Below are positions 51,412-64,000 of a DNA stretch of 64,000 nucleotides, in pieces. Where the stretch lies: positions 19,993 through 83,992 of the forward strand of contig DASYUH010000046.1 of NCBI GenBank assembly GCA_036001465.1, written 5' to 3'. Both the position numbers and the translations under genes were made by a program. The notes below the pieces were generated by a model. That model was given only the letters and a program-made list of their open reading frames with translations, did not search any database and had not been told where the DNA came from. This DNA is from Candidatus Polarisedimenticolia bacterium. Lineage in GTDB: Bacteria > Acidobacteriota > Polarisedimenticolia > Gp22-AA2. The stretch's first letter is position 1. Each line of letters begins with the position of its first letter.

Positions 51412-52028
51412 CCGCCGTCGCGGCCCCCTCAGCCTCCGTCCGGAAGGCCCGGATCGTCCCGGCGGTGGTGGTGTGCGGCCTCGTCCTGATCGCCGGGACG
51501 CCGGTCACGACGGCCCAGGCCGCGGCGCCGGGCGCCACGGTGTTCACGGCGGGCTCCGGCGAGATCGGGGCCGATGTCTCCGTGACCCGCTTCGATCCCG
51601 ACCTGACGGACGAACGCGGCGATCGGTACGCGCTGCGCGGAGGAGCCTTCATCGGACGCCAGATCCAGTGGGAGGCGGAGATCACGCGCGCCACGGCCCG
51701 GGAGGAGCTGTTCTCCGGCGCCGAGAAGAGGATCACGCTGGCCCTTGCCGTGGCCAACGTGGTCGTCAATTTCTACCCGGGAGGACGAACCGTTCCGTAC
51801 GTCCTGGCGGGCATGGGAGTGGGGCAGATGAAGCTCGAGGCGATCGGTCTGTCGTCGCGCGAGACGGCCACCGCCTACCAGATCGCGGGCGGCTGCCGCT
51901 TCTTCATTGGAAGGAACAACCGCGCGGCCGCGCGCCTCGAGCTGGCCCTCCTGGCGAACGAGGGGTTCGACGAGCGCTACGTCCACGCCTCGCTGGGGGC
52001 GGGAATGACCTTCCGACTCGGACAGTAG
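51408..52028 (+). CDS. outer-membrane beta-barrel (OMP_b-brl-like) protein; start uncertain
   Basis: Signal-like ...RKARIVPAVVVCGLVLIAGTPVTTAQA, then alternating beta-strand pattern (ALAVANVVVNFY, PYVLAGMGVGQ, AYQIAGGCRFFI, LELALLA, ASLGAGMTFRLG). There is no in-frame ATG. Candidate starts are CTG 51408 (overlapping the upstream stop) or GTG 51465. Confidence 0.55.
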   Translation: MTAVAAPSASVRKARIVPAVVVCGLVLIAGTPVTTAQAAAPGATVFTAGSGEIGADVSVTRFDPDLTDERGDRYALRGGAFIGRQIQWEAEITRATAREELFSGAEKRITLALAVANVVVNFYPGGRTVPYVLAGMGVGQMKLEAIGLSSRETATAYQIAGGCRFFIGRNNRAAARLELALLANEGFDERYVHASLGAGMTFRLGQ

Positions 52029-52968: not shown

Positions 52969-53065
52969 CGGATTCTCCTCCCTGGGCTTCACCAGCCAGA
53001 ACCTAGGTTTCGACGTCTCCCGTGTCAACCGCCACGCCGCGCGAGGGGGATGCTAGGATGCGCGC

Positions 53066-54259
53066 GTGACCGACCGCGTCGTCCTGTATGCGGCCGCCTT
53101 CGTGCGCGCCCTGGGGACCGGCATGATCGGCGTCCTCATGGGCGTCTATCTCGCCCGGCTCGAGTTCGATCCGGCGCGGATCGGCTACGTGGTCGGCGCC
53201 GGGCTTCTCGGATGCGCCGCCGCGGCCCTTCTGGTGACCCTGTTCGCCGATCGCGCCGGCCGCCGGAGGTCCCTCATCGCCGTGTCGCTCCTGTCGTTCG
53301 CGGGCGGCTGCGCGTTCGCCCTCACCGCGCACCCCTTCGCCGCGGGGGCGGCGGCCTTCCTCGGGATGGTGAACGGCATGGGGCGCGACCGCGGCGCCTC
53401 GCTCATCCTCGACCAGGTCATCCTGCCGGCGACCGTCGGCGACGAGCGCCGGACGCGCGCCTTCGCCTGGTACAACGTCCTGCAGGACATCGGCCACGCC
53501 GTGGGCGGGCTCCTGGCGGGACTGCCGGCCCTGCTCCGCGGGCTGGGGGCGGAGGGGCTCGGGTCCTACCGGCTGAGCGTCGGCTTCTACGCCCTGCTGA
53601 TGCTGGCCTGCGCGGCGCTCTACCTTCGCCTGTCGTCGCGCGTCGAGCCGGATCCCGCACACCCCCTGAAGGCGCGCGTCTCCCCCGCGACGCGGCGCGT
53701 CCTCTGGCGCATCTCGTCCCTGTTCGCCCTGGACAGCCTGGCCGGCGGGTTCCTGACCACGGCGCTCCTGAGCTTCTTCTTCTACGAGCGCTTCGGCGTA
53801 GGGGAGGCGGTCCTCGGCCCGCTGTTCTTCGGGGCGCGGGTCCTGAACGCCCTGTCCCACCTGGGGGCGGCGTGGCTGGCGCGCCGCTTCGGGCTGGTCA
53901 ACACCATGGTCTTCACCCACATCCCTTCGAGCCTCCTGATGATCACCGTGGCCTACGCGCCGAGCTTCCCGATCGCCGCCCTTCTCTTCCTGCTGCGCGA
54001 GGGGCTGGTGGAGATGGACGTGCCGACCCGCCAGTCGTACGTCATGGCGGTGGTGCGTCCCGAGGAGCGCACCCTGGCCTCCGGCGTCACCCACCTCGTC
54101 CGGGTCGGCGCGTGGGCCGTCGCCCCGGCGTTTGCCGGCTGGTTCATGGGCGGGCTGTCGCTGATGACCCCCCTGGTCATCGGGTCGTGCATGAAGGTGG
54201 TGTACGACATCATGCTCTATGCCGCCTTCCGGGGGACGCGGGCGCCCGAGGAGGTTTGA
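53066..54259 (+). CDS. MFS transporter
   Basis: 12 hydrophobic segments; ...FADRAGRRRS... in loop 2-3 (MFS signature-like). The stop lies 8 nt before the Fur-family ATG. Confidence 0.85.
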   Translation: MTDRVVLYAAAFVRALGTGMIGVLMGVYLARLEFDPARIGYVVGAGLLGCAAAALLVTLFADRAGRRRSLIAVSLLSFAGGCAFALTAHPFAAGAAAFLGMVNGMGRDRGASLILDQVILPATVGDERRTRAFAWYNVLQDIGHAVGGLLAGLPALLRGLGAEGLGSYRLSVGFYALLMLACAALYLRLSSRVEPDPAHPLKARVSPATRRVLWRISSLFALDSLAGGFLTTALLSFFFYERFGVGEAVLGPLFFGARVLNALSHLGAAWLARRFGLVNTMVFTHIPSSLLMITVAYAPSFPIAALLFLLREGLVEMDVPTRQSYVMAVVRPEERTLASGVTHLVRVGAWAVAPAFAGWFMGGLSLMTPLVIGSCMKVVYDIMLYAAFRGTRAPEEV

Positions 54260-54267
54260 CAGGGCGG

Positions 54268-54774
54268 ATGGGCCGGGCCATAATTGAGACTGAGTTGCAA
54301 CTAGAGGTCACGCTGAAAGCCATCGATCGATTCGCCCGGTTCCTGTCCCAGAACCGTCTCAAGATGACGAAGGAGAGGCGCGCCATCCTGGCTGACGTGC
54401 TGTCGGTGCGCGGGCACTTCGACGTGGACGATCTGCTGGCCCGCCTGCGCCGCACGGGGCACCACGTGTCGCGCGCCACCCTGTACCGCACCCTGCCGCG
54501 CCTGGTCGAGTCGGGCCTGATCCACAAGGTCGAGATGGCCGGGGGCCAGGCGCGCTACGAGCTGATGGTGGGGCGGCACCACCACGATCACATGGTCTGT
54601 CTCGGCTGCGGCGACATTCTCGAGTTCGAGAGCGCCGAGGTCGAGCGCATCCAGGAAGAGGTCTGCCGCCGCAAGAAATTCGTGATGACCGGCCACACCC
54701 ACCAGATCCGCGGCTACTGCGCGGCGTGCGCCGGCGACGGCCGGGCGGGCGCCGTCCCGCGCAAGGCGCACTGA
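54268..54774 (+). CDS. fur: Fur-family metalloregulator
   Basis: ...FLSQNRLKMTKERRAILADVL...VSRATLYRTLPRLVESGLI...HHHDHMVCLGCGDILEF...GYCAACAG has a winged helix, a His-rich site and two CxxC pairs. Confidence 0.85.
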   Translation: MGRAIIETELQLEVTLKAIDRFARFLSQNRLKMTKERRAILADVLSVRGHFDVDDLLARLRRTGHHVSRATLYRTLPRLVESGLIHKVEMAGGQARYELMVGRHHHDHMVCLGCGDILEFESAEVERIQEEVCRRKKFVMTGHTHQIRGYCAACAGDGRAGAVPRKAH

Positions 54775-56108
54775 TGCTCGAAGCCCTGGTCGTGACCCTC
54801 CGGGAGGGAGTCGAGGCGGCCCTGGTCGCCGGCATCATCTTGATCTACCTCCGCAAGACCGGGCGCGCGGCGCTCGAGCGCTGGGTCTACCTGGGCCTTT
54901 CGGCCGGCGTCGCGGCGAGCGTCGCCTGCGCCTTCGCGTTCGCCCGCATGGAGATCGCGGAGGAGGTCTACGAGGGCTGGCTGATGATCGCCGGCGCCGT
55001 CCTGGTGACCACGATGGTCATCTGGATGCTGCGCACGGCGAAGGGGCTCAAGCAGCAGATCGAGGCCCGCGTCGAGGCGATCGCCTCCCGGTCCCTCGGT
55101 GCGGCGGCGCAGGGGGACGCGGCGGCACAGAGGGGCGCCGTGGCGGCCGGCCTGTTCGGCCTCACGTTCGTCCTCATCCTGCGCGAGGGGATCGAGACGG
55201 TCCTGTTCCTGGCGGCGGTCAACCTGACCACCGACTCGCTCCTGACCTTCTTCGGCGGGCTCCTGGGGATCGGCCTGGCAATCCTGTTCGGCGTCGCGTT
55301 CGTGCGCGGCACGGCGCGCGTCGACCTGCAGCGCTTCTTCACCGTCACCGCCATCGTCCTGTTCGTCCTGGCGGCCCAGCTCCTGGTCGGCGGCCTGCAC
55401 GAGTTCGGCGAGCGCGGCACCATCCCGATCGGCGCGAAGGAGATGGAGCTCATCGGTCCGGTCGTGAAGAACAACGCCATCCTCCTGGCTTCGCTCCTGG
55501 CGCTGCCGCTCATCGTCCTCCTGGTGCCGGGCCGCGCCGAGAAGAAGCGGGCCTCCGAGGCGGCTGGGCTCGAGGGGCCGGAGCGGCGCCTGGCGCTCGC
55601 CGGAATGCAGCGCGAGCGCCTCTGGAAGCGGACGTTCGCCGTGGCCGGGATCGTCGCCATCACGGCGCTCACCGTCTCGCACGCCTTTTCACGCCTGCCG
55701 CGCGGCGTCGATCCGCCGGTCCTGCTCGAGCCCGACGCCGCGGGAATCGTGCGCCTCCCGAAGGCCGGGTTCGAGGACGGGCGCCTGCACCGCTACGGGG
55801 TCGAGACCGACGGCGCCGTGGTGCGGTTCTTCGTGAAGAAGTCCGGCTCCCGCCTCGTTCCGGTGTTCGACAGCTGCCAGGTGTGCGGGGCCCACGGCTA
55901 CGCCGACCTGAAGGGACGGCTCGTCTGCCTGGCGTGCGCCGCCGACGTCAACCCGGCGACCCTGGGGACGGGGGGCGGCTGCAACCCGATTCCGCTGCCG
56001 TTCAAGGACGAGGGGGCGAGCCTCGCGATCGCCGTTTCTGATCTGAAGACGCAGGCGGCGGCGTTCCGCGCCGCGCAATCGACGGCGGCGAAGCCTCCCG
56101 CCGACTGA
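54774..56108 (+). CDS. FTR1/EfeU-type iron permease fused to a DUF2318-like Cys-rich domain
   Basis: Two REGxE motifs (TLREGVEAALV, ILREGIETVLF) in a 7-TM region. C-terminal domain ...LHRYGV...VRFFV...VFDSCQVCGAHGYADLKGRLVCLACAADVNP...GGGCNPIPLP. The start overlaps the fur stop (TGATG). Confidence 0.8.
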   Translation: MLEALVVTLREGVEAALVAGIILIYLRKTGRAALERWVYLGLSAGVAASVACAFAFARMEIAEEVYEGWLMIAGAVLVTTMVIWMLRTAKGLKQQIEARVEAIASRSLGAAAQGDAAAQRGAVAAGLFGLTFVLILREGIETVLFLAAVNLTTDSLLTFFGGLLGIGLAILFGVAFVRGTARVDLQRFFTVTAIVLFVLAAQLLVGGLHEFGERGTIPIGAKEMELIGPVVKNNAILLASLLALPLIVLLVPGRAEKKRASEAAGLEGPERRLALAGMQRERLWKRTFAVAGIVAITALTVSHAFSRLPRGVDPPVLLEPDAAGIVRLPKAGFEDGRLHRYGVETDGAVVRFFVKKSGSRLVPVFDSCQVCGAHGYADLKGRLVCLACAADVNPATLGTGGGCNPIPLPFKDEGASLAIAVSDLKTQAAAFRAAQSTAAKPPAD

Positions 56109-56119
56109 GAGGCCGGGCC

Positions 56120-57445
56120 ATGTTCCTGCGACTCGTCGTGCATTCCCTGCTGCGCCGCAAGAGGCGGAAGACCGTGATCATGGCGGCGATCGCCCTCGGG
56201 ACCGCGGCCGCGGCGGCGCTCGGAGATATCGCGCTCGACATCGGCGACAAGGTGAGCCGCGAGCTGAGCTCGTTCGGCGCCAACCTCGTCGTCCTGCCGG
56301 CGGGCGGCGGCGCCCCGGTCGTGGTCGGCGGCGAGGACGTGTCCGCCCTGCGCGTCCCGGCGTACCTGGGCCGCCAGGACCTGAGCAACGTCCGGGAGAA
56401 TTTCTGGAAAAACAACATCCTGGGGTTCGCGCCGGTCTTCGACGTCGCGGGGCGGCTCGCTCCGGGGGGCCGGGCCGTGACGCTGCGCGGCACCTGGTTC
56501 GACCGGAATGTCGAGGGGGCCGATCCGCCGCTGCGCACGGGGCTGCGCAGCCTGAATCCGTTCTGGAGCGTGACGGGGGAGTGGCCGGACGAGGCCGGCC
56601 TCCCCGCCCTGGCGCCGGCCGGGGACACGCAGCCCGATCCGGGGCCGCTCGAGGCGCTGGCCGGCGGCAACCTGGCGGCGGAGATCGGGCTGCGCCCCGG
56701 GAATCGCCTGAGGATTTCCGTCGCGGGCCGCATGGCGCCGCTGATCGTCACCGGGATCGTGAGGACCGGCGGAGAGGACGAGGACGCGCTGCTCCTGCCG
56801 ATCGAAACGGCCTGGAGCCTCGCCGGACAGCCGGGCCGGATCTCACGCGTCTTCGTGCGGGCCCTGACGACGCCCGAGACGGCCGTGTACGAGAGACTGG
56901 GTGCCAGCCCCAGGGACCTGCCGCCGGAGGAGTTCGAACGCTGGACCTGCACGCCGTTCCCCTCGTCCATCGCCTACGAGCTGCAGCGCGCTGTGCCCGG
57001 ATCGGAGGCGCGCGTCATTCGCCGGGTGGCCGATTCGGAGGGGGTCATCCTGCGGCGAATCTCCGGCCTGATGGCCGCGATCGCCGTGCTGGCGGCGCTC
57101 GGCTCGGCCCTGGCGGTCACCAGCGCCCTGTCGACGAGCGTGCTCGAGCGCCGGTCGGAGATCGGCCTGCTCAAGGCGATGGGGGCGGGGAACCCGCGCG
57201 TCGTCGCGCTGTTCCTGGCGGAGGCCGTCCTGTTCGGCGTCACCGGGGGGCTCCTCGGAGCGGGGCTCGGGGCGCTGATGGCGCGCTTCATCTCCACGTC
57301 GGTGTTCGGGGCGCCCGTGACGATCCGGCCGTCCGCCATCCCCCTGGCGATCGCCGTGGCGCTTCTGATCACGACCGCCGGATTCGTCATGCCGGCGCGG
57401 CGCATCCTGCGATTCCGCCCGTACGAGGTGCTGCGTGGACTCTAG
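56120..57445 (+). CDS. FtsX/MacB-type ABC permease (1 of 2)
   Basis: N-terminal TM, a periplasmic domain of about 250 aa, and a C-terminal FtsX 3-TM module (...RRSEIGLLKAMGAGNPRVVALFLAEAVLFG...). Confidence 0.85.
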   Translation: MFLRLVVHSLLRRKRRKTVIMAAIALGTAAAAALGDIALDIGDKVSRELSSFGANLVVLPAGGGAPVVVGGEDVSALRVPAYLGRQDLSNVRENFWKNNILGFAPVFDVAGRLAPGGRAVTLRGTWFDRNVEGADPPLRTGLRSLNPFWSVTGEWPDEAGLPALAPAGDTQPDPGPLEALAGGNLAAEIGLRPGNRLRISVAGRMAPLIVTGIVRTGGEDEDALLLPIETAWSLAGQPGRISRVFVRALTTPETAVYERLGASPRDLPPEEFERWTCTPFPSSIAYELQRAVPGSEARVIRRVADSEGVILRRISGLMAAIAVLAALGSALAVTSALSTSVLERRSEIGLLKAMGAGNPRVVALFLAEAVLFGVTGGLLGAGLGALMARFISTSVFGAPVTIRPSAIPLAIAVALLITTAGFVMPARRILRFRPYEVLRGL

Positions 57446-58667
57446 CCGCGTCCCCACGGAAGCCCCCGCGTCCCGGGGACGGGCCGCTCCGGCCGGCCGG
57501 CCTCCGCGAGGGATCCGGCACGAGCCCCGGCGCTTCATCACCTCGGCCCGGTTCCTCCTCCGCTCGCTGAACCTGCGTGGCGCGGCGTTCCTCCTGGCGC
57601 TCCTGGCGGTCACGGTCGGCGCGACGGTGACCGCGACCGTCCTCAACCTGAAGGCCGGCCTCAAGGAGAAGATGTCGCGCGAGCTGCGGGCCTACGGTCC
57701 GAATCTGCTGGTCGTCCCGCGCTCGGACACCGCGGCCCAGCGCGCCGGCGACCCGGCGTCGATCACCCTGCTCGAAGAGGACCTGCGCGCGGTGCCGGCG
57801 ATCCTGGGATCCCGGACGGCCGTCGTGCCGGTTCTGATCGCCGGAGGGACGGCGGCCGGCCACGCCGCGACCCTCGTCGGCGCCGACTTCGATGCCCTGC
57901 ACCGCCTGTACCCCGGATGGCGCCTCGAGCCCGCGCCCCCGGCCGGGCCGGCGTGCGTTCTCGGCGTGGCGCTGGCGCGGCGGGCCGGCGCGCGGGCCGG
58001 GGATCCGATCGAGATCGGCACGGGGTCCGGCTCGGCGACGCTCCGGGTCGCGTCGCTGCTCTCGACGGGGGAGGCGGAGGACGAGCAGGTCTTCGTCCCG
58101 CTGGCATTCCTGCAGGGACTCGTGGACCGTCCCGGGCAGGCGTCGTTCGCCGCGCTGTCGATCGACGGCGGGGCGCCGGGTGTCGGCAGGGCCTCGGCCG
58201 CGATCGACCGGGCGCTGCCCCGCGCCCGGGCGCGCCCGCTGCGGGCGATCGCCCTGGCGGAGGGGGCGCTGCTCGATCGGCTCGACCGGATGATGCACCT
58301 CCTGACCCTGGTGATCCTGCTGCTTTCCGGTCTCTGCCTGGTCACGACCCTCATGTCGATGGTGGTCGAGCGCGAATCGGAGATCGGCCTGGCCCGCGCC
58401 ATCGGCGCCGGAGACGGGGAGATCTTCCGGATGTTCCTGGGGGAGATCGGCCTGCTCGGGGTCCTCGGCACGCTCGCGGGTCTGGTGCTCGGCGCCGGCG
58501 TGACGCGGCTGATCGGCGAGGGCCTGTTCGGCGCCCCCATCGAGGCGAGCCTGTCGGTTGCGCCGGTCGTCCTCGGGATGTCGATGCTCATCTGCCTGAT
58601 CGCCGTGTACGTTCCCCTCCGGCGCGCCCTGGCGATCCAGCCGGCGGCGGCGCTGCGAGGGGAGTGA
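57435..58667 (+). CDS. FtsX/MacB-type ABC permease (2 of 2)
   Basis: Same architecture (...RESEIGLARAIGAGDGEIFRMFLGEIGLLG...). The GTG start overlaps the upstream stop by 11 nt, and the exact start is uncertain. Confidence 0.8.
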   Translation: MDSSRVPTEAPASRGRAAPAGRPPRGIRHEPRRFITSARFLLRSLNLRGAAFLLALLAVTVGATVTATVLNLKAGLKEKMSRELRAYGPNLLVVPRSDTAAQRAGDPASITLLEEDLRAVPAILGSRTAVVPVLIAGGTAAGHAATLVGADFDALHRLYPGWRLEPAPPAGPACVLGVALARRAGARAGDPIEIGTGSGSATLRVASLLSTGEAEDEQVFVPLAFLQGLVDRPGQASFAALSIDGGAPGVGRASAAIDRALPRARARPLRAIALAEGALLDRLDRMMHLLTLVILLLSGLCLVTTLMSMVVERESEIGLARAIGAGDGEIFRMFLGEIGLLGVLGTLAGLVLGAGVTRLIGEGLFGAPIEASLSVAPVVLGMSMLICLIAVYVPLRRALAIQPAAALRGE

Positions 58668-58683: not shown

Positions 58684-59766
58684 GTGTCCTTCATCCAGAT
58701 CGACAACGTCACACGACGGTACGACAAGGGCGTGATCGCCCTCGAGCGCGTCAGCCTCGAGATCAAGCAGGGGGAGTGGCTGGCGATCATGGGTCCCTCG
58801 GGATCGGGCAAGACGACCCTTCTGAATCTTCTCGGGGGCCTCGACCTCGCCGATGAAGGGCGGGTGATCGTGGACGGCCTCGATCTGGCCCGCATCTCGC
58901 GCCCCGAGCTGATCCGCTACCGCCGCGAGCGCGTCGGACTGGTGTTCCAGCAGTTCCACCTCATCCCCTACCTGACCGCCCTGGAAAACGTCATGCTCGC
59001 CCAGTACCTGCACAGCATCACGGACGAAGGGGAGGCGGTGCAGGCGCTCACGCGGGTCGGCCTCGGAGACCGCCTCGGGCACCGCCCCGCGCAGCTGTCC
59101 GGCGGCGAGAGGCAGCGCGTCTGCATCGCGCGCGCCCTCATCAACCGACCGAAGCTCATCCTGGCGGACGAGCCGACCGGCTCGCTCGACGCCGAGAACG
59201 AGAGCGCCGTCCTCGACCTGTTCGCGCAGATCCACGACTCCGGCCAGACGATCGTCATGGTGACGCACGACCTCGTCGTCGGCCGGCGCGCCTCGCGCCA
59301 GATCCAGCTCGAGCACGGCCGGGTCGCCGGCGAGTTCCTGACCCTGCAGCAGGACGAGGAGGCGATCGACGAGGTCCTCGAGTACCTGTGGCTGAAGACC
59401 GAGGGGGACCCCGCGGCGCACGAGATCTGCGCCATCGGCGCGCGCCTCGCCACGCCGCAGCTCCTCGAGCGCATGCACGCCCGCGGCATCCTGCACCCGG
59501 GCGGCGGCCTCGAGTTCAGCGAGGACGGCCGCCGTCGCGCCGAGAGCCTGATCCGCCGCCACCGCCTGGCCGAGACCCTGTTCTCGGAGACCTTCCAGAT
59601 GCACGAGGCGGTCGTCGAAGAGGAGGCCTGCTTCTTCGAGCACATCCTGTCGCCCGTGATGACCGATTCGATCTGCGGCTTCCTGAACCACCCGCCCGCC
59701 TGTCCGCACGGCAAGCCGATCCCGCGCGGCGCGTGCTGCGTCGGACGATCGGCGTCGGCGCGGTAA
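58684..59766 (+). CDS. MacB/LolD-type ABC ATPase fused to a C-terminal DtxR/MntR-like metal-dependent regulator module
   Basis: aa 1-215: Walker A GPSGSGKTT, Q-loop, signature LSGGERQR, Walker B LILADEPT, H-loop VTHD. aa about 222-347: ...LLERMHARGIL...LEFSEDGRRRAESLIRRHRLAETLF...EEEACFFEHILS...LNHPPACPHGKPIP parallels the DtxR wHTH plus dimerisation/metal domain. Confidence 0.85.
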   Translation: MSFIQIDNVTRRYDKGVIALERVSLEIKQGEWLAIMGPSGSGKTTLLNLLGGLDLADEGRVIVDGLDLARISRPELIRYRRERVGLVFQQFHLIPYLTALENVMLAQYLHSITDEGEAVQALTRVGLGDRLGHRPAQLSGGERQRVCIARALINRPKLILADEPTGSLDAENESAVLDLFAQIHDSGQTIVMVTHDLVVGRRASRQIQLEHGRVAGEFLTLQQDEEAIDEVLEYLWLKTEGDPAAHEICAIGARLATPQLLERMHARGILHPGGGLEFSEDGRRRAESLIRRHRLAETLFSETFQMHEAVVEEEACFFEHILSPVMTDSICGFLNHPPACPHGKPIPRGACCVGRSASAR

Positions 59767-59897: not shown

Positions 59898-60584
59898 ATG
59901 CTGGTCGTCCTCGCGGTCACGATTTTCACCGAATGTCATGGACGAGTCTCCCGCGCACTGATTCACGATCCGATTGTCGCCGCCGCCGCCGCGGAAGAAT
60001 TCGCGCGCGTGGCCTTCGTCGAGCGCAATGCCGATGCCGCCTACAGGCTCGTCTGGGAAGAATGGAAGACGGAGCTGTCGCTTGGCATGTTGATCCTGAC
60101 CCTCAAGCAGATCCACCCGAGTGGCTTTCCATCCCGAGTGCGTGCCGAAGAGTACGAACCCATTCCAGACAAGCCAGCGATGGCGATATTCCTGAATGGG
60201 GAGAATGACGCGGGAGAGACATTCTACTATCGGTTTGTCATGGCGGGATCCGCTGCGGAAGGCTACAAAGTGGGCGGCTTTCTCCGAGGCAGCGGACCGT
60301 ATCCCAAATCGTCGACCAGACGTCCATTGCATGCAGCCATGACCAGGCGCCGCGATCGAGCCGCATGGAGCGCGATGTCGCTCCCCTGCCGTCACGATGG
60401 AGCCGTGGTGGCGCCGGGCCGAAAATCGGAGCGGAATCGGATGTGTTACCATGCAGTGCCCGATCATCGAGGAGGTGATCATGCACCCCGCCCCGCAGTT
60501 CTCGATGACCAAAACCGTAATCGTGATGGTGGCCATGGGCGTCGCGGCTTGTTCGGGCGACAGCAACCGGCCGGTCCCCGATAA
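59898..60584 (+). CDS. hypothetical protein; 3' part doubtful
   Basis: The first 135 or so codons look coding (MLVVLAVTIFTECHG...FYYRFVMAGSAAEGYKVGGFLRGSGPYP) in a region of visibly lower GC. The last 90 or so codons are Arg-rich and overlap the next gene by 104 nt. Confidence 0.4.
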   Translation: MLVVLAVTIFTECHGRVSRALIHDPIVAAAAAEEFARVAFVERNADAAYRLVWEEWKTELSLGMLILTLKQIHPSGFPSRVRAEEYEPIPDKPAMAIFLNGENDAGETFYYRFVMAGSAAEGYKVGGFLRGSGPYPKSSTRRPLHAAMTRRRDRAAWSAMSLPCRHDGAVVAPGRKSERNRMCYHAVPDHRGGDHAPRPAVLDDQNRNRDGGHGRRGLFGRQQPAGPR

Positions 60585-61170
60585 CGATGTCCCGGCGATT
60601 GCGTCCCTCGACCCCTCCTACGCCGTCGAGGGGGATCCGGCATTCATGTTGCTCGTGCACGGCCAGGGATTCAGCCTGGGATCGGTGGTCAGGTGGAACG
60701 GGGCCGATCGGCTCACGACACTGCTGAACCCGACTCCCGGAGAGTTCGTCCTCAAGGCATCCATTCACCTTGCCGACGTCGCCGCTCAGACAACCGCGCA
60801 GATCACGGTGTTCAATCCGCCCCCGGGGGGCGGGGTCTCGAACACCGTCAATTTCGTCGTCTATGATCCGTCCGCTATCAATCCGGTGCCGACCGTTTCG
60901 ACCACCGATCCCACGTTCGTCACGCACGGCGTGCAGGCGACGATCACGGTGCACGGCACCGGCTTCATGAGCGGCTCGACCGTCCTATGGAAGCCCGCCG
61001 CGACGACAAACGAATACACGGAGACCAACGTCACCTTCGTCAACAGCACCGAGCTGACGGTGGTCATTCCCGCGTTGCATATCCCGAACACCGGCTCCGC
61101 AACTCTCAAGGTCGTCAATCCGCCCCCCGGCGGCGGAACCTCCGGCGGCGAGACAGTCAGCATTTTGTAA
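60481..61170 (+). CDS. lipoprotein with two IPT/TIG (Ig-like) domains
   Basis: GAGGAGGTGATC RBS before ATG 60481; lipobox VAMGVAAC. Two repeats of ...G..F..GS.V.W......T......L...I......G.A...V.NPPPGGG.S... Confidence 0.75.
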   Translation: MHPAPQFSMTKTVIVMVAMGVAACSGDSNRPVPDNDVPAIASLDPSYAVEGDPAFMLLVHGQGFSLGSVVRWNGADRLTTLLNPTPGEFVLKASIHLADVAAQTTAQITVFNPPPGGGVSNTVNFVVYDPSAINPVPTVSTTDPTFVTHGVQATITVHGTGFMSGSTVLWKPAATTNEYTETNVTFVNSTELTVVIPALHIPNTGSATLKVVNPPPGGGTSGGETVSIL

Positions 61171-61197: not shown

Positions 61198-61755
61198 TCA
61201 GGTGACCTGGGCCCCCTTCTCGAGCAGGATGACCACGAGCAGATCGTTCTTCCCGTTGGCGGCGAGGGCCAGGGGGGTGAAGCCGCTGCCGTCCTTGGCG
61301 TTGACGTCGGCCCCGTGGGCGAGCAGGAGCTCGGCGAGCGCCACCTGCTTGTTGGCGGCGGCGGCGTGCAGGGGCGTGTTCTCCTTGGCGAACCGGGTGC
61401 TCCGGGATCGGGCGTTGACGTCGGCGCCGTTGGCCAGAAGGACGCTGGCGACCTCCTTGCGGCCGAAGAACGAGGCGAGGTGCAGCGGGGTCCAGCCGTC
61501 GTGGCTGTAGGTGTTCGCCAGGGACGGGTCGGCGCCGAGAAAATCGCTGACCCGGTCGGTGAGACCCAGGGCGGAGGCCTCGAAGAGGTTCACCCCCGCC
61601 CCTTTCTCCAGAAGCAGATCGAACAGGTCCTTGCGGCCGGTGTAGGCGGCGGTCAGGAGCAGCGAGTCGCCGCTCTCGTTGCGGGCGTTCAACAGATCGG
61701 GATGGGCTTCGAGTAGCGTCCTGATCCTGTCGCGATCTCCGATGGCTACTGCCAT
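61198..61755 (-). CDS. ankyrin-repeat protein
   Basis: GDSLLLTAAYTGRKDLFDLLLEKGAGVN, GWTPLHLASFFGRKEVASVLLANGADVN, NTPLHAAAANKQVALAELLLAHGADVN, GFTPLALAANGKNDLLVVILLEKGA. ATG 61755 (GAAGAGGAAG RBS) is preferred over ATG 61779. Confidence 0.85.
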   Translation of the reverse strand: MAVAIGDRDRIRTLLEAHPDLLNARNESGDSLLLTAAYTGRKDLFDLLLEKGAGVNLFEASALGLTDRVSDFLGADPSLANTYSHDGWTPLHLASFFGRKEVASVLLANGADVNARSRSTRFAKENTPLHAAAANKQVALAELLLAHGADVNAKDGSGFTPLALAANGKNDLLVVILLEKGAQVT

Positions 61756-61787
61756 GAACACTTCCTCTTCAGGATTCATAGGCGGGC

Positions 61788-61825: not shown

Positions 61826-62506
61826 GTGACGACCTCGACGCCGCGTGCTTCGGGCGAGCTCGCGAATCTGGCGCGCCTCCTGGGCGAGCGGGCGGGCGTG
61901 ACCGGCCCGTCATCCTGGCTGATCGAGAACGCGGATCTTCTGCCGCCCGTGCCGTCGCCAGGGACGCCTGCCGGGGCGTTGCCCGCCCAGGCGCAGCGCC
62001 CTCGCGCGCTCGACGTGGCGTGCGGGTCGGGGCGGCACGCGCTCCTGCTGGCGGCCGCCGGCTTCGAGGTGCTGGCGATCGACCGGGACGCCGCGGCGAT
62101 CGAGGCGCTGCGCGCGGCGGCGGGGAGGCTGGGCCTGACGCTTCGCGCGGAAGTCCGTGATCTCGAGGCCCGCGACCGCGAGAGCGGCGGCGCCGGCCAC
62201 GGATCGATCGCGGGGCCTCTCGAGGTGGCCGGCCCCTCCACCTACGACGTGATCCTGGTCGTGCACTACCTGCATCGCCCGCTCTTCCCGGCGCTCGTGA
62301 GCGCCCTCGCCCCGGAAGGGCTCCTGCTCTACGAGACGTTCACCGTCGACCAGGCGGCACGCGGCCATCCGAAGAACCCCGACTTCCTGCTGAAGCATGG
62401 GGAGCTTCCCGGGCTGGTGGCGCCGCTCGCGATCGTCCGGCAGCGGGAGGGGGAGTTCGACGGCCGCTTCGTCGCGGCCGTGGCGGCGGTCAGAAGCCGA
62501 TCTTGA
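61826..62506 (+). CDS. class I SAM-dependent methyltransferase
   Basis: Motif I ALDVACGSGRHALLLAAAGFEVLAIDRD; post-I/II ...YDVILVVHYLHRPLF...LAPEGLLLYETF. GTG 61826 is the first in-frame start after the promoter-like box. Confidence 0.75.
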   Translation: MTTSTPRASGELANLARLLGERAGVTGPSSWLIENADLLPPVPSPGTPAGALPAQAQRPRALDVACGSGRHALLLAAAGFEVLAIDRDAAAIEALRAAAGRLGLTLRAEVRDLEARDRESGGAGHGSIAGPLEVAGPSTYDVILVVHYLHRPLFPALVSALAPEGLLLYETFTVDQAARGHPKNPDFLLKHGELPGLVAPLAIVRQREGEFDGRFVAAVAAVRSRS

Positions 62507-64000
62507 GCCCCGCCTCGATGGTGCGGGGGGGGCCGAGCTGTCCGATGGGGCGGCCGAAGCCGAACGAGGTCACCCGTCCGTCGATCGGGCCGCCGTTCCA
62601 GCGGTCGAGGGCGTTGAACACCTGGAAGAAGAATTCCCCTCCGGCGTGGCGCTCCCCCCAGGCGAATGGCCGCGAGAGCCGGAAGTCGACCTGCGCGAAA
62701 TGCGGCGGCGAGGGGATCGACTGGACCGCCGGGAGAAGCGGCAGGGAGAGCTGCCCCCTGAGGACGTTGGCATCGTCGCGGGTGAGATTGATCGGTCCGA
62801 GGGACGTGGACTCGCCGGTGTTGCGGCGCACGCCGTCCGGCCTGTCGGTGGTGATGCCGTCGACGTTCTCGTCGCGGCCGGTCGTGACGTTGAACGGTGC
62901 GGCGGTGGCGAGCTGGACGACGGTCGAGACGCGCAGGCCGAGCCAGGGGAGGCGGGCCCCGCCCGCGAGGACCAGGCGGTGGCGGCGGTCGGCGTCGCTC
63001 CGGGCGCGCTCGCCTTGGATGTTGTCCGAGTCGGGGGGGAGCCAGATCCCTTCGCGCAGCGGGTCCGAGCCCAGATCCATGGCGCGCGACAGCGTGTACG
63101 AGGCCGACCACCAGGAGTCCTTTCCCCGCAGTCGGTAGTCGATCTTCAGGCCGTTGTACCAGGATCGTCCCTCCGTCACGATGGCGGCGATCGAGCCGAC
63201 CGTGGTGTCGCGGTGATGGGGCGAGCCGTCGGCGTTCTTGCTCAGAACCGGGTTCAGGTCGCGCAGGAGCGCCTGGTGATAACCGAGGGCGCGCGTCAGG
63301 CCGGCCTCGATCGATCCCCGCGTCCCCACCGCCCAGTCGGCCCCCAGCGCGTACTCGACGGTGTACGGCGTGTCGAGCCGCGTGCCGGTCGAGAAGCGCA
63401 GGATCAGCTCGGGGGGGAAGACGAGTCCCGCCTTGACGGCGTCGATGCCGACCTGCTCGACGACGTCCTCGGTGATCTCGAGCGCCGCCCCCTGCGGGAA
63501 GAACAGGCCGATCTGGGTCCCGGAGGTGATCGAGGCGACCGCCGGAAAGCCGAGAACCAGCTTGTCGTAGAAGACCCCGGCGCCGCCGCGCAGGACGATG
63601 CGCCCCGCGGGCCGGGGCGTGAAGGCGAAGCCGAACCGGGGGGCCAGGTTGTCGGTGTCGCGATCGGCGCCGCCGTTCTCGATGAACGACGGCACGGACG
63701 TCCCCTCCGGCAGCCTGAAGGTGCTCAGGTCGTAGCGCAGGCCGTAGTCGAGGACCAGGCGCTCGCCGGCATGCCAGGAGTCCTGGGCGAAGAATCCCAG
63801 GCGAGTGTCATTGAGATCGGCGACCGGCTCCCCGTCGATGAACTGGAACACGAGCGGGTAGGTCCGGATGAGCCCGGGCTCGTCGACCTTGCCGTCGCCG
63901 TCGTCGTCGACCATCGGGGTGCCGTCGCACGGGATCGGATTGTCGCCGTAGGTCGCGACGTCGTTGGAGTTCAGGTCGCCGCAGTCCCCCGGCTCGAAGG
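62490..64000 (-). CDS. TonB-dependent receptor-like outer-membrane beta-barrel (5' end off the right edge)
   Basis: The frame stays open upstream of the track Met at 63914 to the window edge. ...LDYGLRYD...APRFGFAFTP...GGAGVFYD... and a C-terminal ...TIEAGLKIGF with terminal Phe. Confidence 0.8.
   Translation of the reverse strand, partial: FEPGDCGDLNSNDVATYGDNPIPCDGTPMVDDDGDGKVDEPGLIRTYPLVFQFIDGEPVADLNDTRLGFFAQDSWHAGERLVLDYGLRYDLSTFRLPEGTSVPSFIENGGADRDTDNLAPRFGFAFTPRPAGRIVLRGGAGVFYDKLVLGFPAVASITSGTQIGLFFPQGAALEITEDVVEQVGIDAVKAGLVFPPELILRFSTGTRLDTPYTVEYALGADWAVGTRGSIEAGLTRALGYHQALLRDLNPVLSKNADGSPHHRDTTVGSIAAIVTEGRSWYNGLKIDYRLRGKDSWWSASYTLSRAMDLGSDPLREGIWLPPDSDNIQGERARSDADRRHRLVLAGGARLPWLGLRVSTVVQLATAAPFNVTTGRDENVDGITTDRPDGVRRNTGESTSLGPINLTRDDANVLRGQLSLPLLPAVQSIPSPPHFAQVDFRLSRPFAWGERHAGGEFFFQVFNALDRWNGGPIDGRVTSFGFGRPIGQLGPPRTIEAGLKIGF

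Follow-up and report, generated by a model that had tools for sequence, protein, structure and literature searches.

A single open reading frame (58684–59766, forward strand) in the 64,000-nucleotide stretch of Candidatus Polarisedimenticolia bacterium DNA analysed here (the window) encodes a 360-amino-acid protein, an ABC-transporter ATPase whose C terminus continues in frame into domains 1 and 2 of a DtxR/IdeR-type metalloregulator, with the SH3/FeoA domain absent. The gene is best explained as encoding the ATPase subunit of a type VII (FtsX/MacB-like) ABC engine within a Fur-controlled, FTR1-type iron-uptake operon (Table 1).

Table 1. Coordinates of the operon and of the domains of the fused protein within the window
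Feature	Coordinates	Strand	Evidence
Operon promoter: −35 TTGACA (54256–54261), 17-nt spacer, −10 CATAAT (54279–54284)	54256–54300	+	Sequence read, conserved in orthologous loci
Fur-family regulator, first gene of the operon	54313–54774	+	PF01475 (FUR), E = 1.8e-30; position kept in 11 loci
FTR1-family iron permease fused to an FtrD-like/DUF2318 Cys-rich domain	54774–56108	+	PF03239, E = 5.6e-39; PF10080, E = 1.2e-21; syntenic in all loci with enough flank
FtsX-type (type VII ABC) permease A	56120–57445	+	PF02687, E = 3e-19; synteny
FtsX-type permease B with MacB-like periplasmic core domain	57435–58667	+	PF02687, E = 1.7e-19; PF12704 (MacB_PCD), E = 7e-12; synteny
Nucleotide-binding domain (NBD) of MacB/LolD/FtsE type, residues 1–216	58684–59331	+	PF00005, E = 3e-36; Foldseek; invariant catalytic motifs
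Short linker and helix 1 of the DtxR-like module, residues 217–240	59332–59403	+	AF2 model, profile alignment, conservation
Degenerate winged-helix subdomain, residues 241–281	59404–59526	+	AF2 fold, superposition on IdeR/DtxR domain 1, PF01325 undetected
DtxR-type dimerisation and metal-binding domain, residues 282–349	59527–59730	+	PF02742, ligand mapping, conservation
C-terminal tail with Cys351-Cys352 (59734–59739), variable end and stop codon	59731–59766	+	Orthologue conservation

Domain architecture of the fused protein

The preliminary description, made from the sequence alone, had proposed that a normal NBD continues without a stop into about 140 residues of a DtxR/MntR-like module (59347–59766, that is, residues 222–360 and the stop codon), and the translation of the frame contains the peptide strings quoted in it. 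The domain search it had called for returned two Pfam matches in the 360-residue protein, PF00005 (ABC_tran) at residues 20–165 and PF02742 (Fe_dep_repr_C) at residues 280–348 (E = 1.5e-23), the latter at 83 bits where the gathering cut-off is 27, far beyond chance. Together, the Pfam and profile sequence matches and the predicted fold identify the segment that follows the NBD as a genuine DtxR/MntR-type module.

The motifs of the NBD are intact, as had been stated: Walker A (GPSGSGKT), the Q-loop (Q89), the signature (LSGGERQR), Walker B (ILADEP, with E163) and the H-loop (H195) are all invariant in 119 orthologues. Its closest folds in Foldseek searches are the MacB NBD, MJ0796, FtsE and LolD (r.m.s.d. 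1.6–2.5 Å), together with YbbA, and its best NCBIfam matches are LolD, FtsE and MacB, every one under the family cut-off; since no equivalog cut-off is reached, the NBD is not LolD, FtsE or MacB itself. The full-length AF2 model has a pTM of 0.61, so that the orientation of the NBD relative to the module is undefined in it. Fold searches with this model matched NBDs only (MetNI structures are found among the matches, by way of their NBD), and the module was therefore modelled alone. The resulting model (pLDDT 91, pTM 0.85) superposes on the two-domain structures of IdeR, DtxR, DR2539 and SloR with TM scores of 0.65–0.73 over 128–139 of 145 columns. A profile search of the PDB with the module aligned IdeR residues 8–133 (E = 1e-22 to 1e-26), an earlier alignment having covered IdeR 42–133.

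Metal ligands of the DtxR-like module

In DtxR, the primary metal site is formed by Met10, Cys102, Glu105 and His106 (Asp8, Glu99, Glu102 and His103 in MntR), and the ancillary site by His79, Glu83 and His98. Profile alignment of the module to IdeR/DtxR places H293 at His79, E297 at Glu83, E312 at His98, C316 at Cys102, E319 at Glu105 and H320 at His106, which bears out the equivalences drawn in the preliminary description, including the replacement of His98 by Glu. The same alignment places E230, an acidic residue like Asp8 of MntR, at DtxR/IdeR Met10 and W236 at IdeR Tyr16. E230 lies on helix 1, which spans residues 221–239 in the AF2 model, begins 2–3 residues past the last NBD strand and also carries the invariant E226, E233 and E240. 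The dimerisation and metal-binding domain, which holds H293, E297, E312, C316, E319, H320, C331, H336, C340 and H342, has the lowest regional entropy in the protein (0.63 bits), against 0.69 bits for the NBD and 1.60 bits for the winged-helix region, the highest of the folded parts.

Conservation of the ligands among the 119 orthologues, on which the earlier assignment had been made to depend, is strong for the primary site (E230 in 96%, otherwise His; C316 in 100%; E319 in 99%; H320 in 100%) and for a SloR-like CPHG site (C340 and H342 in 100%), but the equivalent of His79 falls short: H293 is kept in 77% of the orthologues and gives way to Gln in 23%, and a second (Acidoferrum) clade has Arg there. 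As for the rest of the ancillary site, E297 is present in 100% of the orthologues, and E312, at the His98 position, is replaced by Ser in the Acidoferrum clade. In the alignment, the CPHG motif matches that of SloR, and we take it to correspond to the metal site of SloR/ScaR (Cys123/His125). In several distant fusions (P0245, P0259, P0252 and P0345), residues of the primary site are replaced or lost, so that this site cannot be essential in all lineages.

The module also contains an extra Cys/His cluster that had gone unnoticed in the preliminary description, with C331, H336 and C351 conserved in 100% and C352 in 98% of the 119 orthologues. Members of the Acidoferrum clade possess a second Cys-rich motif in the linker.

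Distribution and integrity of the fusion

The fusion is genuine and ancient, and strong purifying selection acts on it. It is found uninterrupted in at least 239 protein clusters at 90% identity (120 + 119), all with PF00005 and PF02742 and some with hundreds of metagenomic members, and a genome scan with an alignment of eight sequences recovered it in 24 species-level genomes; its carriers are almost all Acidobacteriota. At every locus inspected, NBD and module are contiguous and in frame. The preliminary description had named a frameshift or assembly artefact at the junction as a way in which its reading could fail; the frame crosses the junction without stop or frameshift, and the same continuous frame on hundreds of independent contigs rules such an artefact out. 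A frameshift, read-through or chimera joining two separate genes is accordingly vanishingly improbable, despite the existence of short stand-alone database entries (P0004, P0005, P0009, P0018 and P0027) and of one likely assembly chimera on a 741-bp contig (P0007): P0009 (locus L020) and P0027 (locus L019), the two that were checked, prove to be truncated gene calls within fused genes, the NBD lying in frame directly upstream, and the continuous fusion recurs throughout the clusters and genomes counted above. P0004, P0005 and P0018 are similar short pieces. The closest non-fused NBDs are P0266 and P0262. Genomic context was taken from P0262 (60% identity), the P0266 contig being too short, and consists of the same FtsX-FtsX-NBD gene order without the module.

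Operon context and promoter

The genes are ordered as regulator, FTR1::FtrD-like permease, FtsX, FtsX and NBD::DtxR, with the fusion last wherever flanks exist, and this order is retained even around fusions that are only 41–57% identical. The preliminary description had asked whether the fusion always co-occurs with FTR1/FtsX neighbours, and it does so at every locus with sufficient flanking sequence. In one distant clade, the operon regulator is a canonical DtxR bearing PF01325, which is present besides the fused module. No Pfam match to P19 or thioredoxin was obtained among the operon open reading frames. The Fur gene probably starts with the CTG codon at 54313: orthologues have their GTG start codons at this place in the alignment, and no ATG occurs before 54364.

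Upstream of the Fur gene, the TTGACA-17-CATAAT promoter together with a palindrome is kept in 11 orthologous loci. This 7-1-7 Fur-type palindrome, TGAGACT-G-AGTTGCA (54285–54299), directly follows the −10 element and covers the expected transcription start; elsewhere it reads TGAGACTCAGTCTCA (locus L014) or takes the form of a classical Fur box, TGAGAATGATTATCA (loci L018 and L019). The operon promoter region had previously been placed at 52969–53065, but the Fur box at 54285–54299 is the only conserved operator-like element. A 10-bp palindrome upstream of an MFS gene, AACCTAGGTT (53000–53009), vaguely resembles a DtxR box and was considered as a DtxR-type operator; it was dropped, being unconserved in the three orthologous loci where the MFS gene is retained.

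Comparison with known systems

Our literature search found no paper describing the NBD::DtxR architecture and no characterised example of such a fusion, and trans-inhibition and FTR1 go unmentioned in the available portion of a large 2024 review of metallostasis. Regulatory domains at the C terminus of an NBD are familiar from MetN (C2/ACT-like) and from ModC and MalK (TOBE-like), in which they are paired and the ligand holds the NBDs apart. The logic proposed for the present module is the same, but its fold is unrelated and its ligand of another type, and MetN, ModC and MalK belong to type I importers with substrate-binding proteins. Pfam and fold searches with the module gave DtxR-family matches only, with none to ACT, TOBE or ZSD domains. 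In E. coli ZnuBC, the C-terminal Cys/His zinc-sensing domain of ZnuC is proposed to lock the transporter when zinc-bound (PMC12236471, preprint 2025). Like the module, it is a Cys/His-rich C-terminal extension of an NBD. On the cytosolic side it takes up the metal that ZnuBC transports and forms a dimer under the NBDs, and the proposed locking would make metal uptake autoregulated (PMC12236471). By contrast, the ZnuC domain is a dedicated domain of about 60 residues in a type II importer, whereas the module is a 145-residue, two-domain DtxR/IdeR homologue in a type VII FtsX-type engine alongside FTR1, and no kinship in sequence or fold was found between the two.

The operon itself resembles the FTR1-P19-DUF2318-permease-ATPase iron-uptake systems represented by CJJ81176_1649–1656 of C. 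jejuni and FetMP of E. coli and Y. pestis, for which neither a substrate nor a function of the FtsX-type ABC component is known (PMC6083913). As in C. jejuni, where the system is required for iron acquisition (PMC6083913), FTR1, a DUF2318/FtrD-like Cys domain, two ABC permeases and one ATPase are encoded in a Fur-box operon. In the present operon, however, FTR1 and the FtrD-like domain form one polypeptide, a Fur gene is the first cistron and P19 and thioredoxin are missing; moreover, the ATPase carries a DtxR-type module, whereas that of C. jejuni is described simply as a cytoplasmic ATPase (PMC6083913).

With DtxR, IdeR, MntR and SloR the module shares the fold of domains 1 and 2, the dimerisation helices, the equivalents of Cys102, Glu105 and His106 and an acidic residue at the Met10 position; it differs from them in forming the tail of an ATPase, in its degenerate helix-turn-helix (HTH), in the lack of an SH3/FeoA domain and in the extra invariant C-x4-H ... 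CC cluster. Its closest stand-alone relatives are DtxR-like proteins with a FeoA domain (PF02742 + PF04023, 215–240 residues), which are 41–47% identical to it over 82–94% of its length. They have the helix-1 motif, RRHRLAE, EAC..EH and C-x4-HP-x2-CPHG-x2-IP-x-G-x-CC in common with the module, the CC pair being invariant, but bear a FeoA/SH3 domain in place of the NBD. One of them is located in a Fur-FeoB operon and another is not. These proteins are annotated as Mn-dependent regulators, and none has been characterised.

Proposed mechanism and alternatives

On balance we lean towards reading the module as a cytosolic Fe(II)/Mn(II) sensor that throttles its own ATPase post-translationally, both the direction of the effect and the metal being guesses. 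From the homology to DtxR, the modules are expected to dimerise under the NBDs, and the two modules of an NBD dimer would thus pair beneath the ATPase through the DtxR dimerisation helices. At raised cytosolic levels of Fe(II) (or Mn(II)), the metal would occupy the primary site, composed of Cys316, Glu319 and His320 of the dimerisation domain and Glu230 of helix 1, and would clamp helix 1 onto the dimerisation domain. Because helix 1 starts so close to the last NBD strand, this clamping would fix the relative positions of the NBDs and halt the ATP cycle, shutting off iron uptake post-translationally and more quickly than repression by Fur. A second metal, in a structural or sensory capacity, may be bound by the SloR-like CPHG site together with Glu297 and by the cluster of C331, H336, C351 and C352. 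Trans-inhibition is what we infer by analogy, with the zinc-sensing domain of ZnuC as the direct precedent.

The preliminary description had offered, as its alternative to a sensor, a membrane-tethered repressor. On this reading, the retained winged helix would bind an operator when metal is bound, as in DtxR. A complete winged helix-turn-helix fold is indeed predicted with high confidence (residues 241–281; three helices and a wing, pLDDT 90–96) and superposes on domain 1 of IdeR/DtxR, including structures of IdeR–DNA complexes. Nevertheless, the HTH family PF01325 is undetected by Pfam in the module even at E ≤ 10, the profile alignment contains a deletion at the HTH turn and the start of the recognition helix (IdeR Gly38-Pro39) along with acidic or variable residues at the DNA-contact positions, Q259, the equivalent of Gln43, is Gln in just 33% of orthologues (2.96 bits), and the region is acidic, with a mean net charge of −1.4. 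The DNA-reading part of the module seems to have decayed, with the fold alone kept and DNA binding apparently lost. In addition, the operons already have their own Fur or canonical DtxR, the sole conserved promoter palindrome is the Fur box, and AACCTAGGTT at 53000–53009 is not conserved in orthologous loci. A repressor role is therefore disfavoured, and we regard it as highly improbable.

Three further alternatives were considered. The module may be a constitutive dimerisation device or scaffold that holds the NBDs together or docks a protein, its Cys and His residues binding a structural metal such as Zn without sensing concentration; the most invariant residues across all fusions (C331, H336, C340, H342, C351 and C352) do look like a structural zinc site, and certain distant fusions have lost the classical primary site. 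This we consider unlikely, as the primary-site ligands, including that on helix 1, are 96–100% conserved in both large clades, and the non-fused NBD of 60% identity stands in the same FtsX-FtsX-NBD order, which implies that the module is not needed for assembly. To about the same degree we doubt that the signal or its sign is different, with iron or manganese activating the ATPase by promoting NBD closure, or with the Cys-rich tail acting as an Fe-S or redox sensor that couples uptake to Fe-S or thiol status instead of to free Fe(II). In favour of this are four Cys, invariant or nearly so, and two invariant His that lie beyond the classical sites and have no counterpart in solved DtxR-family structures, the second Cys-rich linker motif of the Acidoferrum clade and the FtrD-like/DUF2318 Cys domain of the partner permease, which is thought to bind Fe-S (PMC6083913); yet Pfam finds no Fe-S family signature in the module, and the Fur-box promoter points to expression under iron starvation and a role in uptake, which would most simply be governed by feedback inhibition. 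Less probable still is a cytosolic iron acceptor or chaperone that takes Fe(II) from the FTR1 permease and passes it on without any regulation: the module is tethered at the membrane beside FTR1 and has several metal sites with mixed O/N/S ligands, but an allosteric role is suggested by its dimerisation architecture and by the way helix 1 is coupled to the NBD, and the same transporter gene order exists around an NBD that lacks it. We know of no chaperone role for DtxR-type domains.

Implications

Iron control in bacteria is regarded as acting almost wholly at the level of transcription, by way of Fur or DtxR, and to our knowledge post-translational feedback of the kind suggested here for metal uptake is known in few systems: ModC, MetN (for non-metals) and recently ZnuC. 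More speculatively, and as a possibility that we consider less likely than not, a whole branch of the DtxR family without DNA binding, marked by its acidic pseudo-HTH and by C-x4-HP-x2-CPHG-x2-IP-x-G-x-CC, may have become a portable, allosteric sensor of Fe(II) through which iron transporters are gated directly, being fused in Acidobacteriota to the ATPase of an FTR1-linked FtsX-type ABC engine and in other anaerobes to FeoA, where it would act on FeoB. If the fused module does act as a sensor, the building of a transcription-factor sensor into a transporter ATPase would clearly exemplify domain co-option and would provide a fast shut-off for iron uptake. An iron-switchable ATPase would also make the unknown job of the ABC component in the widespread FTR1/P19 systems testable. 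Being abundant in soil Acidobacteriota, the fusion is also relevant to iron cycling in soils.

A DtxR-like module fused to an ABC ATPase

Translation of the window yields an uninterrupted 360-aa ORF, NBD::DtxR, in which a nucleotide-binding domain (NBD; aa 1-216) continues into a C-terminal module (aa 217-360). The preliminary description had flagged 59347-59766 (aa 222-360) as a DtxR/MntR-like tail on an ATPase; all strings that it quoted are present in this translation, and domain assignment returned both PF00005 and PF02742 far beyond chance (gathering cut-off for the latter, 27 bits), which confirms the fusion. In NCBIfam, the N-terminal half is nearest LolD, FtsE and MacB and reaches no equivalog cut-off, and the C-terminal 145 aa score below the cut-offs of the DtxR and MntR models. 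The NBD is unremarkable for a type VII ABC ATPase, and the tail belongs to the DtxR superfamily by its domain 2 and fold, but without the family's recognisable DNA-binding domain. The database name is only 'ATP-binding cassette domain-containing protein'.

A frameshift or assembly artefact at the junction, raised in the same description, is contradicted by the recurrence of the in-frame fusion. A full-protein search at the 90% identity level gave 120 clusters (61-90% identity, 335-415 aa, one 276-aa fragment apart), with PF00005 and PF02742 in 120/120; a profile of distant fusions gave 119 further distinct clusters (~390-405 aa), every one with both domains, of which several bear the name Candidatus Acidoferrum or Acidobacteria and some contain hundreds of member sequences. 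Clustering at 50% leaves at least seven fused representatives of full length among the best 150 matches. Scanning one genome per species identified 24 loci carrying the fusion, nearly all from Acidobacteriota (gp22, Candidatus Polarisedimenticolia), with both parts contiguous and in frame throughout; the few labelled as other phyla are probably binning errors. Loci L005, L014, L015 and L016 carry the MAG labels Binatia, Verrucomicrobiia, Cryosericum and Dongiaceae, have modules 73-96% identical to that of the window, and are probably mis-binned Acidobacteriota contigs. Many frameshifts in L001, a 31.5-kb JGI contig with the same operon, suggest a noisy assembly. Short 'stand-alone' database entries were rejected where checked: P0009 (L020) and P0027 (L019) are parts of the fused gene split off by gene calling. 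P0007, in which an EttA-like N-terminus precedes the module on a contig of 741 bp, probably arose by chimeric assembly.

Features of the operon, its surroundings and the fusion protein (percentages, conservation among 119 orthologues)
Feature	Position	Strand	Remark
Small outer-membrane beta-barrel protein	51429-52028	+	
Palindrome AACCTAGGTT	53000-53009		perfect, 10 bp
MFS gene	53066-54259		ahead of operon in window and 3 loci
Sigma-70 promoter	54256-54284		TTGACA-17-CATAAT
Fur-family regulator	about 54313-54774	+	first cistron
FTR1 permease fused to FtrD-like/DUF2318 domain	54774-56108	+	
FtsX permease A	56120-57445	+	
FtsX permease B with MacB periplasmic core domain	57435-58667	+	
NBD::DtxR	58684-59766	+	last cistron of operon
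ABC_tran PF00005	aa 20-165	+	Pfam, E 3e-36
PF02742, iron-dependent-repressor metal-binding and dimerisation domain	aa 280-348	+	Pfam, E 1.5e-23, 83 bits
Met10 equivalent	E230		96%, otherwise His
IdeR Tyr16 equivalent	W236		97%
His79 equivalent	H293		77%, otherwise Gln
Glu83 equivalent	E297		100%
His98 equivalent	E312		98%
Cys102 equivalent	C316		100%
Glu105 equivalent	E319		99%
His106 equivalent	H320		100%
SloR CPHG motif	C340, H342		100%
No equivalent in any solved DtxR-family structure	C331, H336, C351, C352		100, 100, 100, 98%
Secreted-looking protein with IPT/TIG domain	60397-61170	+	downstream
193-aa ankyrin-repeat protein	61198-61779	-	gene kept directly 3' of fusion gene in L004, L006, L007
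TonB-dependent-receptor-like outer-membrane beta-barrel	62490-63914	-	PF25183/PF00593; ORF extends further upstream

A conserved iron-uptake operon

The order regulator-FTR1-FtsX-FtsX-NBD::DtxR is kept in each of the 24 genomic loci whose upstream sequence suffices to show it, and also around metagenomic fusions only 41-57% identical, so that the FTR1/FtsX neighbourhood that the preliminary description proposed to trace in other genomes recurs wherever the upstream flank suffices. The window and 11 orthologous loci share the promoter upstream of the Fur gene and, directly after its -10, a 7-1-7 palindrome (TGAGACT-N-AGTCTCA), which in two species is the classical Fur box TGAGAATGATTATCA. At the level of sequence, this is a conserved fusion in an iron-uptake context under predicted Fur control. 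Within 54256-54313, the stop codon of the MFS gene runs into the -35, and an annotated-looking ATG at 54268 falls within the promoter; Fur probably starts at the CTG at 54313, after AGAGG and aligned with the orthologues' GTG starts, the ATG at 54364 being the alternative. Upstream of the MFS gene, where the intergenic region is divergent, loci L006, L008 and L011 do not retain the AACCTAGGTT palindrome, and a GGGATGCTAGGATGCGC stretch shortly 5' of the MFS start is present in the window and L006. The two beta-barrels that flank the region are candidate outer-membrane partners for the iron system.

In the P0244 clade, a distant group of fusions, a canonical DtxR (PF01325+PF02742+FeoA) replaces Fur as first gene (L031 3607-4293; L032 535-1239), placing a true DtxR repressor and an NBD-fused DtxR-like module in one operon. 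The system has its counterpart in the widely conserved FTR1/P19/DUF2318/two-permease/ATPase iron-uptake cluster studied in Campylobacter jejuni, where it is needed for growth under iron limitation and its ABC part has no known substrate (PMC6083913). Unlike that cluster, the operon here lacks P19 and thioredoxin genes.

Predicted metal site and winged helix

Modelled alone with 79 homologues (pLDDT 91, pTM 0.85), the module is closest to two-domain IdeR, DtxR, DR2539 and SloR structures (TM 0.65-0.73 over 128-139 of 145 columns), which identifies it as the winged-helix and dimerisation domains of a DtxR-type protein; compared with DtxR and IdeR, it keeps the fold of both N-terminal domains but has neither the SH3/FeoA domain nor an HTH that the Pfam model recognises. 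IdeR residues 8-133 align to the module profile, and from this alignment the metal ligands listed previously prove correct: equivalents of His79, Glu83, Cys102, Glu105 and His106 are present and His98 is Glu. That list lacked the acidic Met10 equivalent and an additional Cys/His cluster. The alignment reveals a conserved putative primary metal site (Met10/Cys102/Glu105/His106 in DtxR) linking helix 1 to the dimerisation domain, and in the predicted model only two or three residues separate helix 1 from the last NBD strand. SloR aligns across the CPHG motif, its Cys123/His125 being a metal site. C331, H336, C340, H342, C351, C352 and E297 are essentially invariant in distant fusions and stand-alone relatives too; primary-site residues are replaced in some distant lineages.

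The winged helix probably no longer reads DNA. Pfam gave no PF01325 match at E<=10 in the module or its closest stand-alone relatives, and detected this domain in the canonical DtxR encoded beside a distant fusion. In the profile alignment, residues matching IdeR Gly38-Pro39, where the HTH turn leads into the recognition helix, are deleted, and acidic or variable residues occupy IdeR DNA-contact positions; only a third of orthologues have Gln at the Gln43 equivalent. Mean net charge of the region is -1.4 for the fusions and -4.3 for the FeoA-fused relatives, compared with a presumed +1 for DtxR and MntR reference sequences. Column entropy is 1.60 bits in the winged helix, 0.63 in the metal/dimerisation domain and 0.69 in the NBD: within the protein, constraint is strongest in the sensor core and weakest in the putative DNA reader. 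A tethered repressor, the membrane-bound alternative offered in the preliminary description, would draw on the retained winged-helix fold; the undetected PF01325, the acidic and variable region and the presence in each operon of its own regulator (Fur in the clade of the window, a genuine DtxR in that of P0244) argue against it.

Proposed mechanism and evolutionary context

We lean slightly towards a metal-sensing shut-off of the ATPase by the module. Two modules would pair beneath the NBD dimer in the manner of DtxR domains, and binding of Fe(II) or Mn(II) would clamp helix 1, limiting NBD motion and switching the ATPase off, such that FTR1/FtsX iron uptake would halt once cytosolic iron suffices. 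MetN and ModC are demonstrated examples of this logic. A version that responds to a metal was recently put forward, on the basis of structures and mutants, for ZnuC and its Cys/His zinc-sensing domain (PMC12236471). These NBD regulatory domains would be analogous to the module in function, but they are not homologous to it. Among rival readings, besides the tethered repressor, the module may less probably serve only as a structural domain for dimerisation or Zn binding, sense metal with the opposite sign or respond to Fe-S/redox state instead, or act as an iron acceptor.

A second large fusion clade, from Candidatus Acidoferrum/Acidobacteria (P0241 and P0388-P0506; L035 5665-6870; ~401 aa), carries about 40 extra aa between NBD and module. 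This insertion contains HPLNCPLVNTGDCC, similar to the C-terminal HP..CPHG.PIP.G.CC motif; the clade's His79 equivalent is Arg. The closest stand-alone relatives (P0011-P0120; 215-240 aa, PF02742+FeoA) are uncharacterised and annotated as 'DtxR family Mn-dependent regulators'. They share with the module a strongly acidic pseudo-HTH, in which the HTH model is not detectable, and the motif C-x4-HP-x2-CPHG-x2-IP-x-G-x-CC. One (P0047; L028 3338-6720) lies in an operon Fur-FeoB-small ORF-PF02742+FeoA protein; another (P0118, L026) is not feo-linked.

No description of the NBD-DtxR architecture was found in the literature searched for it. By analogy, we rate the fusion as an ABC ATPase with a putative regulatory domain that senses substrate and derives from a metalloregulator by co-option. 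The pseudo-HTH and Cys/His motif shared with the relatives, one of them in a Fur-FeoB operon, raise the possibility that an entire branch of the DtxR family does without DNA binding and acts directly on iron transporters.
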